64,000 bases of DNA from assembly GCF_045037415.1 (NCBI RefSeq), contig NZ_CP173438.1; one strand, written 5' to 3'. Position 1 is the stretch's first letter, and every line of letters begins with the position of its first letter. The stretch is from Escherichia coli. GTDB taxonomy: Bacteria; Pseudomonadota; Gammaproteobacteria; Enterobacterales; Enterobacteriaceae. Shown here one piece after another: positions 15,001 through 21,000 of the stretch. A program made the position numbers.

Positions 15001-18000
15001 TAACGCAGCCGGAGAGAAATCCTGATGATGAGAAAATATTTCCCGCTTGAGGCGAGCGAGCGTTTATTTGTTGCAGTTGAAGAAGATGATGTCGTTGATG
15101 CACAGGTCAGTTTGCCGCCGACTATCGCACTAAGTTGTACCACCGAAATCATCCATGATAATTACGCGTTATGCCTGCAATTCTGGCTCAATGGCGTCAA
15201 TCGCCAGGAGTTACTGCGTTTAATATGCAAACAGGCCAAAGGCGATGAGCTGACTGCTGATGAGCGCAAACAATTTAAATACATGCGAGCGCGCTACAAG
15301 CACCTGCGTTTTGCGCAACGGCTGTATTTAAAGAAGCATCAGGCCGGATTTTTATTCGGCAAAACGACCGTTTTTTTGGGGCGTTTTCAGGACGGTTTTC
15401 GTAACGGTAAGAAAAATATTGTGTCGTATTACGGCAACTTGTTACGGGTTTATTTAAGCTCTCCGGTCTGGTCGTTGGTGAACTATTCATTACGCCATAG
15501 CCAGTTAGAAAGCGTAAGCGGTTTTATTGCCTATCGGCAAAAGCAAATGCATACCCTGAAAGAGATAATTGCCAAACCGCGACTCACCGGCAGGGAATTT
15601 CATGATGTGCGAAAAATCATCAGCCAGCAGGTTTCTTATTACGACACCTTAAGATCGCTTGATCCTGAAAATAAAGAGGCGTTACAGATTTCCCGCTTCC
15701 TCGCCGCCATTAATGGCCTGATGGGGGATAAACACGACGACATGGTGGCGGATGATATGGAAAACCGCCAGTCGTATGATGCACCGGTGGCGCTGGATAG
15801 CGATATTCGCCAGCGCTTAGAGCTGCTGATTTCGCGTTTTCCGCTATAACCGGAGCAATGATGTCATCTCGTTTGATTATTGCGCTGATTATCATGCTCT
15901 TAGCCCAGGGTGTGCAGGCACACAATTTTGTCACTGGCAAAACGGTTACCCCCGTTTATATCCAGGAAGGCGGCGAGCTGCTTCTGAATAGCGACGACGA
16001 AATTCACTACCAAAAGTGGAACAGCACACAGCTGGCGGGAAAAGTCCGCATTATCCAGTATATCGCCGGGCGTAAGTCGGCGAAGAAAAAGAACTCACTG
16101 TTAATTAAAGCGGTTGAAGCGGCAAACTTTCCGCAGGATCGTTTTCAGCCCACCACCATTGTGAACACCGATGATGCCATCTTTGGTACTGGCTATTTTG
16201 TCGTTGGCAAAATCGAAAAAAATAAACGCCGCTATCCGTGGGCGCAATTCGTTATTGACGGCAATGGACTGGGACGCGTTGCCTGGCGGTTGCCGGAGCA
16301 GAGTTCAACCATTCTGGTGCTGAATAAAGACGGGCAAATTCAGTGGGCAAAGGACGGCAGCCTGACGCCGGAAGAGGTAGATCATGTCATTGCGCTGGCG
16401 CAGAAACTGATCAATGAATAAAAAATTCAAAGGATTGAGGGTGTTAGTGAGATGAAGCTGGTTGAACACTACATCATGCGTGGTACGCGCCGTCTGGTGC
16501 TGATTATCGTCGGTTTTCTGATCTTTATTTTCGCCAGCTACTCCGCACAGCGTTATCTGACCGAAGCGGCAAATGGGACCTTAGCTCTTGATGTTGTGCT
16601 GGATATCGTTTTCTACAAAGTGCTGATTGCACTGGAGATGTTGTTACCTGTTGGTCTGTATGTGTCAGTTGGCGTGACGCTAGGGCAGATGTATACCGAC
16701 TCGGAAATTACCGCTATCTCTGCGGCGGGGGGCAATCCGGGACGCTTGTACAAAGCCGTTCTTTATCTGGCGATACCGCTAAGTATTTTTGTCACCCTTC
16801 TGTCGATGTATGGTCGGCCGTGGGCTTATGCGCAGATTTATCAACTGGAGCAACAGTCGCAGTCGGAGCTGGATGTTCGCCAGTTGCGGGCAAAGAAATT
16901 TAACACTAACGATAACGGACGAATGATCCTTTCGCAGACGGTTGATCAGGATAATAATCGCCTGACTGACGCGCTGATTTATACTTCTACTGCCAATCGA
17001 ACCCGCATTTTCCGCGCCCGTTCGGTTGATGTGGTTGACCCATCACCTGAGAAACCGACCGTTATGTTGCATAACGGGACCGCCTATCTTCTCGATCATC
17101 AGGGGCGTGACGACAACGAACAGATCTACCGTAATCTGCAATTACATCTGAATCCGCTGGATCAAAGCCCTAACGTCAAACGCAAAGCAAAATCGGTCAC
17201 GGAGCTGGCGCGCTCAGCCTTTCCTGCCGATCATGCCGAACTGCAATGGCGACAAAGCCGTGGCCTGACAGCATTGTTGATGGCGCTGCTGGCCATTTCA
17301 TTAAGTCGGGTAAAACCGCGGCAAGGGCGATTTTCAACGTTATTGCCACTGACATTGCTGTTTGTTGCCATTTTTTATGGCGGCGACGTCTGCCGTACGC
17401 TGGTGGCTAACGGTGCGATTCCCCTCATTCCTGGTTTGTGGTTAGTACCCGGACTCATGCTAATGGGCCTGCTGATGCTGGTCGCACGCGACTTCTCTTT
17501 GCTGCAGAAATTTTCCCGATGAATGTTTTCAGTCGCTATTTAATCCGTCATCTCTTTCTCGGTTTTGCCGCCGCCGCAGGGCTATTGCTGCCGCTTTTTA
17601 CCACCTTCAACCTGATTAACGAACTGGATGATGTCAGCCCGGGCGGTTATCGCTGGACTCAGGCGGTGCTGGTGGTGCTGATGACCTTACCGCGTACACT
17701 GGTCGAACTTTCGCCGTTTATCGCATTATTGGGAGGGATTGTTGGCCTGGGGCAGTTATCGAAAAACAGTGAGCTTACCGCCATTCGCAGCACTGGGTTT
17801 TCTATCTTCCGTATTGCACTGGTGGCGCTGGTTGCCGGGATATTGTGGACTGTTTCGTTAGGCGCGATAGATGAGTGGGTGGCGTCGCCATTGCAGCAAC
17901 AGGCGCTGCAAATCAAATCGACTGCCACCGCGTTGGGGGAGGACGATGACATTACCGGCAATATGCTTTGGGCCAGGCGCGGTAATGAATTTGTGACGGT

Positions 18001-21000
18001 GAAATCGCTGAACGAGCAGGGCCAGCCTGTGGGCGTGGAGATATTTCATTATCGCGACGATCTCTCGCTCGAATCCTACATTTTTGCACGCAGTGCCTCC
18101 ATTGAAGACGACAAAACGTGGATCCTGCATGGTGTGAATCATAAAAAATGGTTGAATGGCAAAGAAACGCTGGAAACATCAGATAATCTTGCCTGGCAAT
18201 CGGCCTTCACCAGTATGGATCTTGAAGAGTTATCGATGCCGGGGAATACTTTTTCTGTCCGTCAGCTTAATCATTACATCCATTATTTGCAGGAAACCGG
18301 ACAACCCAGCAGCGAATACCGCCTTGCACTGTGGGAAAAACTGGGGCAACCGATCCTGACCCTGGCGATGATTTTGCTGGCTGTGCCGTTCACCTTTAGC
18401 GCCCCGCGCTCGCCAGGGATGGGTAGCCGTCTCGCTGTAGGCGTCATCGTTGGCTTACTCACCTGGATCAGCTATCAAATCATGGTCAATCTGGGATTGT
18501 TATTTGCGTTGAGCGCACCTGTTACCGCGCTCGGTTTACCGGTAGCGTTTGTGTTGGTGGCGTTGAGCCTGGTGTATTGGTATGACAGACAACATTAAAC
18601 CCGCCGTGGCGCAACACCACAGCGGGCTCACATTACTGCTTCAGAGTAGCAAATGCCTGAATGATGGCATCGATTTGCTCACGACTGTGGGCAGCGTTTA
18701 CGCTACAGCGCAGCAGAGTGATGCCTGCAGGCGCGGCAGGTGGCAGGATAAGATTCACATAAACGCCCAGCGAAATAAGCTCGCGCCAGATGCGTAAACC
18801 TTCCTCTTTCGAACCGATTATTACTGGCACTACCGGGCTAATATGTGAACTTAACTCATAACCCAGTTTTTGCAGACCGTCATACAGATGGTTGGCGTTA
18901 TCCATCAGTTTTTGCCGCAGCTCTGGTTGTGTGGCAATGGTTCTTAACGACGAGCGCACGGTCGCAATGCAGGACGGAGAAGGAGAGGCGGTAAAAATAT
19001 ACGGGCGGCTGCCGTAGCGCAGCACTTCCATCGCTTCCGAACCGACAGCAAAACCGCCAATCGAGGCCAGACTTTTACTGAAAGTACCAACGATAATATC
19101 CACATCATCTTCAACGCCAACGGCTTCAGCCAGTCCGCGCCCCGTTGCGCCTAACACGCCAAACGAATGCGCTTCATCGACAATCAAATAACCACCGAGA
19201 CGACGTTTGATATCAACAATTTCCGCTAACGGCGCAACGTCACCGAGCATGCTGTAGATGCCCTCAACGATGATAATCGCCTCTTTCGCCCGTTCACCGA
19301 GGCGAACCATGCGCCGTTCCAGATCTTTAGCATCGTTATGGCGGAAACGAATAATTTCTGCGCCACCGAGAGAACAGGCGTCATAAATACTGGCGTGGCT
19401 GTCGGCATCCAGTAACACCACGGCGTTATGGTCGGCAAGTGCGCTGATGACGCCTAAATTAGCGGTATAACCGGTTGAAAAAACGATAGCGGTAGGGCGA
19501 TTGAAAAACTCGGCAATCTCTTTCTCTAACGCCAGGTGCGGCGCATAACTGCCGTTTGCCATACGAGAACCGGTGGTGCCGGTGCCTTGGGCCGCTAACG
19601 CTGCCTGACCTTCGGCGATGGCATCATGATTAAAGGTTAAACCGAGATAATTATTGGTCCCGGCCAGAATCACTTTTTTATTGCCGATCCGACCTTCGGT
19701 GGCGGAATACACTTCATCAATACAGGTGCCAAACGGTGTTAACCCGTTGTCACTAAATTGCAGTCGCTCGCCAGCAAGGCGCGCATATTTATCGTATAGC
19801 CCCATTATTTATTCTCCAGCCATGGAAGTAGAGTTTCCATTAATTGCGCAGGGGTTTTGACATCCAGCAGAATATTAATAGGAATGGAAATATCGAATCT
19901 GTCTTCCAGCATCATTAAGAGATCCATCACTTTGATCGACTCCAGGCCAAGATCGTTGACGAGATCGCTGTCGGGCTTAATTTCCACACCGTTTTCGACC
20001 AAATCCTGTAAACAGGAAAGGATGTAATCCATTACTATTTCACGATTTACCATAGAAACGTTAACACACCTTTAAACAAGACAATCAAAATAGCCCGTTG
20101 CGTAATGCGTGTTCCAGGCTAATCCCGGGAAACCAATTAATATCTTCAGAAATACGGTTATTACTTGCCGACCAGTCGGCATGGGTTAATTCACGGATTT
20201 TCGAACGAGTCAGCATCGGTTCTTTACCCGCCAGACGGCTCAACGCGGTACTGATATCCGCAAGGCAGGTGAGTAGCGGCAGAGGAATACCGACCATCCG
20301 CACGGAACCACAGCGGACATCGGCAACAAGCTGTTGGACACGTTGCCAGTCATAGCCTCCGGCGACGCCATCGCATAATTCATAGGTTTGCGTCTGTACA
20401 GTTTCGGCGCTTAACCACTGACCCACTGCTTGCGCAAAATCGGTGACGTGCAGGAAAGAGAGCTGTGTCTCTGGCGTGCCAAGTCGTGGCAGCAGACCGC
20501 GCAGCATCCAGTCAAACAGCGGTTTTAACTCTTTATCGCCGGGACCATACACGGCTGTCGGGCGAAAAACGCCCAACGTAATTGCGTCAGCCATTGCAGT
20601 CAGCTGTTGTTCGGCGACGTGTTTGGAATTTGCGTACCAGGAGAGTTCGGGATGGCGCGCCGCCAGCGAAGAGATAAACAGAAATCGTTGGCAAAAGCCG
20701 CTCTCTTTTGCCGCTTGCATCAGGCGCAGGCTGCCGTCAACGTTGCAGCGGGTAAAAATCTCTTCTTTGTGCCCGCGCACTTGCCCGGCGCAATGGACCA
20801 CCGCGCTGGCTCCGGTAACCAGTTCGCTAAGCGAATGTGTATCTTCCAGCGAACCGCGCACCCAAGTGAGATTATCATTGACGTGAGCGCGGGCAGTACG
20901 CGTCAATGCGCGAACGTGAAAGCCGCGGGCGAGCAGGTTATCAATAATATATTTACCGATAAACCCGGTAGCGCCCGTCACCGCGACAGTTTGATTCATG

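Follow-up and report, generated by a model that had tools for sequence, protein, structure and literature searches.

The Escherichia coli DNA analysed here, 64,000 nucleotides of contig NZ_CP173438.1 (NCBI RefSeq assembly GCF_045037415.1) and referred to below as the window, contains at positions 16452-18598 two genes for paralogues of LptF and LptG, the transmembrane subunits of the lipopolysaccharide (LPS) extractor, which are designated lptF2 and lptG2 in the following. We consider it likely that this pair is a second Lpt-type extractor, which would export the ceramide lipid of the surrounding locus by means of the housekeeping ATPase LptB. The original prediction, made from the nucleotide sequence, had proposed a dedicated extraction system, possibly borrowing LptB or another ATPase; homology, genomic context and published experiments in Caulobacter lend support to such a system, with LptB as the ATPase. 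The extractor reading has already been published, and the prediction is a correct rediscovery of it.

The segment 16452-18598 (2147 bases) matches several E. coli genomes at 100% identity, strain 4/1-1 among them. It comprises lptF2 (16452..17522, plus strand), encoding an LptF-family permease paralogue of 356 residues, and lptG2 (17519..18598, plus strand), encoding an LptG-family permease paralogue of 359 residues; both begin with ATG, and the stop of the first overlaps the start of the second by 4 bases (ATGA). For lptG2, a mechanical list of open reading frames (ORFs) gives a GTG start at 17438; the ATG at 17519 was adopted in accordance with homologues and with the NCBI Prokaryotic Genome Annotation Pipeline (PGAP). 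The profiles used for classification were the curated NCBIfam equivalog hidden Markov models, with which LptF2 scored 316 bits for TIGR04407 (LptF; cut-off 230) and 64 bits for the LptG model, and LptG2 306 bits for TIGR04408 (LptG; cut-off 240) and 87 bits for the LptF model. Since each protein scores much lower with the opposite model, the F/G assignment is specific. Both belong to the YjgP/YjgQ family (PF03739, LptF_LptG), which they match end to end (LptF2: E 1.8e-53, model positions 2-352 of 353; LptG2: E 7.5e-69, model positions 1-352 of 353), and alignments to all solved LptF and LptG chains span the whole of each protein.

AlphaFold2 models of the two proteins (predicted local distance difference test of 81 for LptF2 and 84 for LptG2) contain six transmembrane helices, a beta-jellyroll at about residues 150-230 between the third and fourth helix, and a short predicted coupling helix at residues 85-91 between the second and third. 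The best fold matches in the PDB were LptF chains for the LptF2 model (TM-score 0.81, 9dok_F) and LptG chains for the LptG2 model (TM-score 0.84, 6mit_G). What had been proposed from the sequence for the pair, namely two translationally coupled genes, membership in the LptF/LptG family and permease topology, is thereby borne out by the full-length overlapping ORFs, by scores above curated cut-offs and by the modelled architecture. The LptB-coupling helix, to which the same proposal had looked for a check by alignment and structure prediction, is accounted for by helix 85-91 and its Glu85, which is invariant among the 31 LptF2/LptF and 35 LptG2/LptG sequences aligned and shares its column with the Glu of K-12 LptF and LptG. 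The residues concerned in K-12, LptF E84 and LptG E88, engage LptB.

An assignment of cargo from residues lining the cavity was considered and dropped. Residues K34, K40 and K41 of E. coli LptG correspond to N31, D37 and D38 in LptG2, and this N/D/D pattern is uninformative on cargo because the canonical LptG of Pseudomonas aeruginosa also lacks the basic residues (IDELNDIS); to judge from these sequences, the absence of basic residues after the first transmembrane helix of LptG2 is lineage-specific.

The window pair is a paralogue and not the housekeeping lptFG. Of 5426 complete E. coli genomes, 5425 contain DNA of the latter, the median being a single copy; in K-12, lptF-lptG adjoin pepA, and the lptCAB-rpoN cluster includes lptB. 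LptF2 is 29% and LptG2 28% identical to the K-12 housekeeping proteins, and when relatives of LptG2 were collected as cluster representatives from a library of 1.8 billion proteins, more than 150 of them outscored the solved E. coli LptG (146 bits). In the same set of complete genomes, lptF2G2 is present at full length in 4105, with 95-100% identity, and missing from about 24%, K-12 included. PGAP labels the pair 'LPS export ABC transporter permease LptF/LptG', names it receives because the paralogues pass the equivalog cut-offs and which are probably wrong as to substrate. Because of this label, two LPS extractors appear to be encoded in about 76% of the complete genomes of E. coli; lptF2/lptG2 would be the appropriate names for the second pair.

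Immediately downstream, and convergent with lptG2, lies the set of genes that the original prediction had described as a lipid operon. Between the end of lptG2 at 18598 and the stop codon of spt, which starts from 18633, there is a gap of 34 bp (18599-18632), and an RNA hairpin (18596..18630, assigned to neither strand) separates the two convergent genes, with folding energies of -27.7 kcal/mol (z -5.1) for the minus-strand RNA and -15.7 kcal/mol (z -2.8) for that of the plus strand. This hairpin was the top match of a terminator scan, has a weak U-tract, and is a probable bidirectional terminator. The minus strand then carries spt for serine palmitoyltransferase (18633..19805; 390 residues; NF047599, 600 bits, cut-off 500), acpR for a specialised acyl carrier protein (19805..20053; acyl carrier protein models below cut-off), cerR, or epi, for an NAD-dependent epimerase-family reductase (20085..20999; weak SDR/epimerase matches), and aasR for a fatty acyl-AMP ligase or acyl-AcpR synthetase (20996..22744; NF006624, 874 bits, cut-off 600). 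The ORF of aasR as listed encodes 582 residues; PGAP would place its start at 22684. On the plus strand follows yghO (23088..24230), a ceramide synthase (aca/bCerS) homologue, which gave no Pfam, NCBIfam or PDB match and is 53% identical to the protein at the bCerS position of the metagenomic spt locus L006.

The orthologues of these genes in E. coli BL21(DE3) have been characterised (Padilla-Gomez et al., PMC9386255): ECD_02851 (AasR) acylates ECD_02853 (AcpR), ECD_02854 (Spt) is active in vitro with acyl-AcpR as the preferred substrate, and ECD_02852 (epi, corresponding to cerR) and yghO (aca, ECD_02850) were assigned as the reductase and the N-acyltransferase of dihydroceramide synthesis. 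Because the Spt and AMP-ligase models were passed, and in view of the activities of the BL21 orthologues, the lipid operon is a sphingolipid (ceramide) pathway. The operon is thus present and convergent with the permease pair across a 34-bp hairpin, as had been described, and both coordinates and RNA folding agree with that description; its sphingolipid nature had been missed, as had the seven-gene operon with YghQ and P-loop proteins to which the pair itself belongs.

The linkage of the pair to spt was followed across species in a scan with one genome per species, which returned 80 loci, from Escherichia, Hafnia, Shimwellia, Serratia, Erwinia, Pantoea, Citrobacter, Rosenbergiella, Pseudomonas, Stutzerimonas, Azotobacter, Nitrococcus and Betaproteobacteria. 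In all 80, the LptF2 homologue is encoded directly 5' of LptG2, and 66 have spt within the fetched flanks. In 11 of the 14 loci lacking spt, the flank available upstream is shorter than 10 kb; the other three contain a partial Spt match or none, and one of these three keeps homologues of cerR, aasR and yghO. Several Serratia loci are stored with a flank too short to reveal spt. Since gene order varies among the Escherichia, Serratia, Erwinia and Pseudomonas types, the linkage is not a single inherited arrangement, and it persists through rearrangements. In Serratia nevei (among the Serratia loci L032, L031 and L025) the spt operon is found 5' of yghT, and in Erwinia (L037, Erwinia sp. JUb26) it is found downstream, after yghTSR and yghO.

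A neighbour-joining tree of LptG2 relatives placed all locus-derived LptG2 sequences in one clade of 38 of the 170 tips, separate from E. coli LptG. The clade includes P0126, P0127, P0131 and P0137, the context of which was verified. Among the nearest non-enteric relatives (36-45% identity), some are encoded on contigs with Spt, acyl carrier protein, epimerase and AMP-ligase genes, and others on contigs with genes for a CDP-alcohol phosphatidyltransferase, a diacylglycerol-kinase-like protein and a metallophosphoesterase, as in ceramide-phosphoglycerate loci; P0132 showed a metallophosphoesterase as its only neighbour, and the contigs of P0124 and P0134 were too short for gene context.

For the ATPase, all six-frame ORFs of at least 100 residues in the window were searched with phmmer, using E. 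coli LptB as the query. In agreement with the earlier statement that no LptB-like ATPase is encoded nearby, a single ATP-binding cassette (ABC) ATPase was found in the 64 kb, at 39395-40081, about 21 kb away in the capsule (kps) region, where it adjoins the gene of its own permease; it was rejected as a partner, being the ATPase of a capsule exporter. The three proteins YghT, YghS and YghR match LptB solely via Walker A, and their best family hint is dTMP kinase, below threshold; a weak Pfam ABC_tran match among them covers only residues 15-41, that is, the P-loop. These proteins were likewise rejected as the missing ATPase, as they show P-loop matches only and no ABC signature motif. Homologues of LptC and LptA are absent from the window. 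No free-standing LptB-like gene adjoins the pair in any of the 80 species-level loci, in which the ABC matches have 25-38% identity and lie at least 5 kb from the pair, and lptB itself was found in 5425 of the 5426 complete E. coli genomes, again with a median of one copy. Because there is one lptB per genome and related loci have no dedicated ATPase beside the pair, a complex of the composition LptB2-LptF2-LptG2 is the most economical model.

Most of the ABC matches in the 80 loci are MsbA-like fused proteins of about 580 residues in Pseudomonas-type loci. Proteins of this type are encoded within 10 kb of the pair in Pseudomonas loci L050, L059-L066, L069, L079, L082, L087 and L090, and in the betaproteobacterial loci L081 and L085. 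They are possibly dedicated flippases, in place of which Enterobacterales carry YghQ.

Both genes of the pair are maintained by strong purifying selection, as follows from ratios of nonsynonymous to synonymous substitution rates (dN/dS) of 0.04-0.09 against other Escherichia lineages. At full length, spt is present in 4092 E. coli genomes, as compared with 4105 for lptF2G2. In K-12 MG1655 (L002, 3129043-3132408), an IS5 element (IS5LO) lies between yghO and a truncated yghQ (355 versus 449 residues); the region corresponds to about 14700-23000 of the window, and orf274, the ytfJ paralogue, lptF2, lptG2, spt, acpR, cerR and aasR are gone from it. By this IS5-marked deletion, the laboratory reference strain has lost the whole system. 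In E. coli SW07091 (L095), only the last 65 bp of lptG2 are left after yghQ, the segment from orf274 to lptG2 being otherwise gone, and spt, acpR and cerR are retained, with a truncated aasR that is joined to what is left of gspD. Neither transport nor synthesis is intact in this strain, owing to deletions independent of that in K-12.

Experimental work on a corresponding system is available for Caulobacter, where CC_1156 and CC_1155 were named LptF2 and LptG2 and proposed to transport phosphosphingolipid to the outer membrane (Olea-Ozuna et al., PLoS Pathog 2024, PMC11324152). According to a preprint by Uchendu, Isom & Klein (bioRxiv 10.64898/2026.04.12.717747), lptF2, lptG2 and lptC2 can be deleted there only in spt or cpgB mutants, and LptF2 and LptG2 co-purify, each also bringing down the single LptB. 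The authors further state that many sphingolipid loci of alpha- and gammaproteobacteria contain lptF2/G2, and in Fig. 2B of the preprint the E. coli UTI89 locus is depicted as homologous.

For the E. coli locus, we propose a mechanism along the following lines. AasR, AcpR, Spt, YghO as ceramide synthase, and CerR would make a ceramide-based lipid, for which YghQ is a candidate flippase. An LptF2-LptG2 heterodimer, forming the two transmembrane subunits in the inner membrane, would take the lipid from the outer leaflet, its two coupling helices docking onto the housekeeping LptB dimer, and the lipid would then move up the beta-jellyrolls in the periplasm and from there probably to the shared LptC/LptA/LptDE bridge. 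Expression of the locus in E. coli, the final lipid, flipping by YghQ, partnership with LptB and use of the shared bridge are steps that we infer only.

Several points weigh against export of a ceramide lipid through LptB. The interaction of LptF2/LptG2 with LptB in E. coli is inferred, and orthology to the Caulobacter pair rests on locus context and Fig. 2B of the preprint. The Caulobacter study did not detect binding to LptC2 (bioRxiv 10.64898/2026.04.12.717747). As the E. coli locus has no CpgA/CpgB-type head-group genes, the cargo probably differs and the logic of toxicity may not transfer. The LptG2 tree was built by neighbour-joining with no bootstraps and has no Caulobacter sequences among its tips, and in the literature searched, on yghQ and yghO as well as on sphingolipids of E. 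coli, no native product is described.

Three other explanations were weighed against this background. It is highly improbable, in our assessment, that the pair is a spare or specialised exporter of LPS or of another glycolipid, placed next to spt by an accident of island structure. Its passing of the NCBIfam 'LPS export' equivalog cut-offs, the PGAP names lptF/lptG and a fold indistinguishable from that of LPS-bound LptFG would fit such a role; an equivalog score, however, reflects family resemblance and not substrate, the linkage to spt recurs in 66 of 80 genomes from several orders and in several gene arrangements, and essentially all E. coli have the housekeeping lptFG. Moreover, the pair and the lipid operon were lost jointly from K-12, and the genome counts of the pair and of spt (4105 and 4092) are nearly equal. 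Powering of LptF2-LptG2 by a partner other than LptB, whether a YghR/S/T P-loop protein or an unlinked ABC ATPase, is very unlikely as well. Here, yghS and yghR stand at the head of the pair's own operon, all three YghR/S/T proteins bear Walker A, and their weak Pfam matches include ABC_tran; yet that match is confined to residues 15-41, the ABC signature is absent and the best hint is a dTMP kinase below cut-off. In addition, the flanks fetched for many lptF2G2-containing loci of Pseudomonas, Azotobacter and Nitrococcus showed no YghRST-like genes, both proteins of the pair have the invariant coupling-helix Glu, and the partner in Caulobacter is LptB.

More weight, though still little, was given to the whole E. 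coli locus being cryptic, with intact genes that are effectively silent and a permease pair devoid of a role under normal conditions. An E. coli sphingolipid is not reported in the literature searched, the pair is missing from about 24% of complete genomes, among them K-12 with its IS5-marked junction, and SW07091 bears independent deletions. Against this stand the sustained purifying selection expressed in dN/dS values of 0.04-0.09, the retention of the pair at full length and 95-100% identity in 4105 genomes, the conservation of the locus across many enterobacterial genera, and the enzymatic activity of the Spt, AcpR and AasR that it encodes. Export of the locus ceramide lipid by LptF2-LptG2 with housekeeping LptB remains the reading that we prefer.

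The window derives from the E. coli chromosome and covers the segment pitB-yghTSRQ ... yghO-glcC, with the gene order hyb-yghU-gss-pitB-yghT / yghS-yghR-yghQ-orf274-ytfJ-like-lptF-lptG / spt-acp-epimerase-FAAL (fatty acyl-AMP ligase) / yghO / glcC-glcDEFGB. The pair forms the 3' end of a tight seven-gene operon, yghS-yghR-yghQ-orf274-ytfJ-like-lptF2-lptG2. At its head, yghS and yghR (12112..13630, plus strand) encode P-loop kinase-like paralogues with Walker A and weak dTMP-kinase matches; a third P-loop paralogue, yghT (11246..11938, minus strand), is divergent from yghS. They are followed on the plus strand by yghQ (13676..15025), encoding a membrane protein resembling MOP-family flippases, with a weak MOP flippase match, by orf274 (15025..15849), encoding a conserved protein of 274 residues, and, directly 5' of lptF2, by the gene for a YtfJ-family paralogue (15858..16421; TIGR01626, 216 bits, cut-off 151). 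Orf274 occurs in most Enterobacterales-type loci fetched, with 49-95% identity, as do YghQ, the YtfJ paralogue and the other accessory genes of the operon. Searches with Orf274 gave no Pfam, NCBIfam or PDB match, and those with the YtfJ paralogue and YghR in the same databases yielded nothing further of use. Rfam and tRNA scans found nothing within the lptF2G2/sphingolipid locus.

Outside this locus, Rfam matches were obtained for the C0719 sRNA (31694-31915, minus strand) in the glcB-glcA intergenic region and for the STnc490 Hfq-binding RNA (35165-35288, plus strand) just after an IS4 copy. This copy lies within about 33800-37470, where glcA is followed by the IS4 element (frameshifted in the matching record), remnants of gspK and gspL, and yghD; relative to strain 4/1-1, sslE, pppA and gspS2-gspJ are missing, and beyond glcA the window is collinear with p4A-type strains, not with 4/1-1. 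A group 2 capsule (kps) locus occupies about 38640-55840 and includes the kpsM/kpsT-type ABC pair with the ATPase at 39395-40081. A JUMPstart element (38573-38611) is located upstream of the capsule permease gene. The region at about 40.1-47.7 kb has a GC content of about 30% and contains a large CDP-glycerol glycerophosphotransferase gene, after which capsule export and assembly genes follow on the minus strand. The end of the window (about 56600-64000) is a mobile-element remnant with part of an IS110 element, a toxin gene of the AbiEii family that carries a frameshift, the CbtA/YeeU toxin-antitoxin pair (about 60257-61091), and genes for antirestriction and DUF proteins as in CP4-like islands.

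Most non-K-12 E. coli have an intact and selectively maintained locus for ceramide synthesis and export, the product of which is unreported in the literature searched. Homologues of CDP-OH transferase, the diacylglycerol-kinase-like protein, metallophosphoesterase, Tam41 and nucleotidyltransferase were not found in the window. Since head-group genes of the Pseudomonas/Caulobacter type are lacking and the accessory genes are different, the final lipid probably differs from the ceramide diphosphoglycerate of Caulobacter. The Enterobacterales-type accessory set, devoid of CpgA/CpgB-type enzymes, suggests a different, undescribed sphingolipid head group. We tentatively regard it as possible, though not as the more probable case, that this is a distinct Enterobacterales sphingolipid system, in which a ceramide core and LptF2G2 are combined with accessory genes replacing CpgA/B/C and the lipid is exported to the outer membrane. 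If so, about three quarters of E. coli strains, K-12 not among them, would make an undescribed, perhaps phosphorylated, sphingolipid. Should LptF2G2 draw on the same LptB as the LPS extractor, and perhaps on the same LptC/A/DE bridge, export of sphingolipid would compete with export of LPS. The solved LptB2FG structures among the fold matches include complexes with zosurabalpin and macrocyclic peptides, and the paralogue may, in our own estimation, be relevant to work on LptB2FG inhibitors.

Among the closest known systems are the ceramide-phosphoglycerate loci of the Pseudomonas/Azotobacter type (A. vinelandii, P. luteola; PMC11324152), the LptG2 proteins of which are 48-58% identical to that of E. 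coli. They share with the E. coli locus the core spt-acpR-cerR-aasR, a yghO-like gene and then lptF2-lptG2. In the related metagenomic loci L006 and L012, genes for a CDP-OH transferase and a metallophosphoesterase adjoin the pair, in L006 together with one for a diacylglycerol-kinase-like protein, whereas none of these is found in the E. coli window; the same holds for the MsbA-like fused ABC protein of about 580 residues that many Pseudomonas-type loci encode within 10 kb. Caulobacter crescentus, like E. coli, has LptF2 (CCNA_01214/CC_1156) and LptG2 (CCNA_01213/CC_1155) as a second pair inside an spt/acpR/cerR/aasR/ceramide-synthase locus. In both organisms this locus has no dedicated lptB, and the housekeeping lptFG and a single lptB are located elsewhere. 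The E. coli locus differs in lacking LptC2 and head-group genes of the CpgA/CpgB/CpgC type, instead of which it contains YghQ, Orf274, the YtfJ paralogue and YghR/S/T. With the E. coli LptB2FGC complex (6MHU, 6MI7 and 6S8H among other PDB entries), the pair has in common the PF03739 family, six transmembrane helices, the coupling-helix Glu, the jellyroll and the F-then-G gene order, and TM-scores of LptF2/LptG2 to solved LptFG chains range from 0.56 to 0.84. It is set apart from this complex by an identity of only 28-29%, by being non-essential and by a context of sphingolipid synthesis instead of pepA/holC. On this genomic evidence, the linkage to spt, the presence of housekeeping lptFG and the dispensability of the pair would argue against LPS as its substrate, and the cargo of LptF2G2 would be a ceramide derivative.

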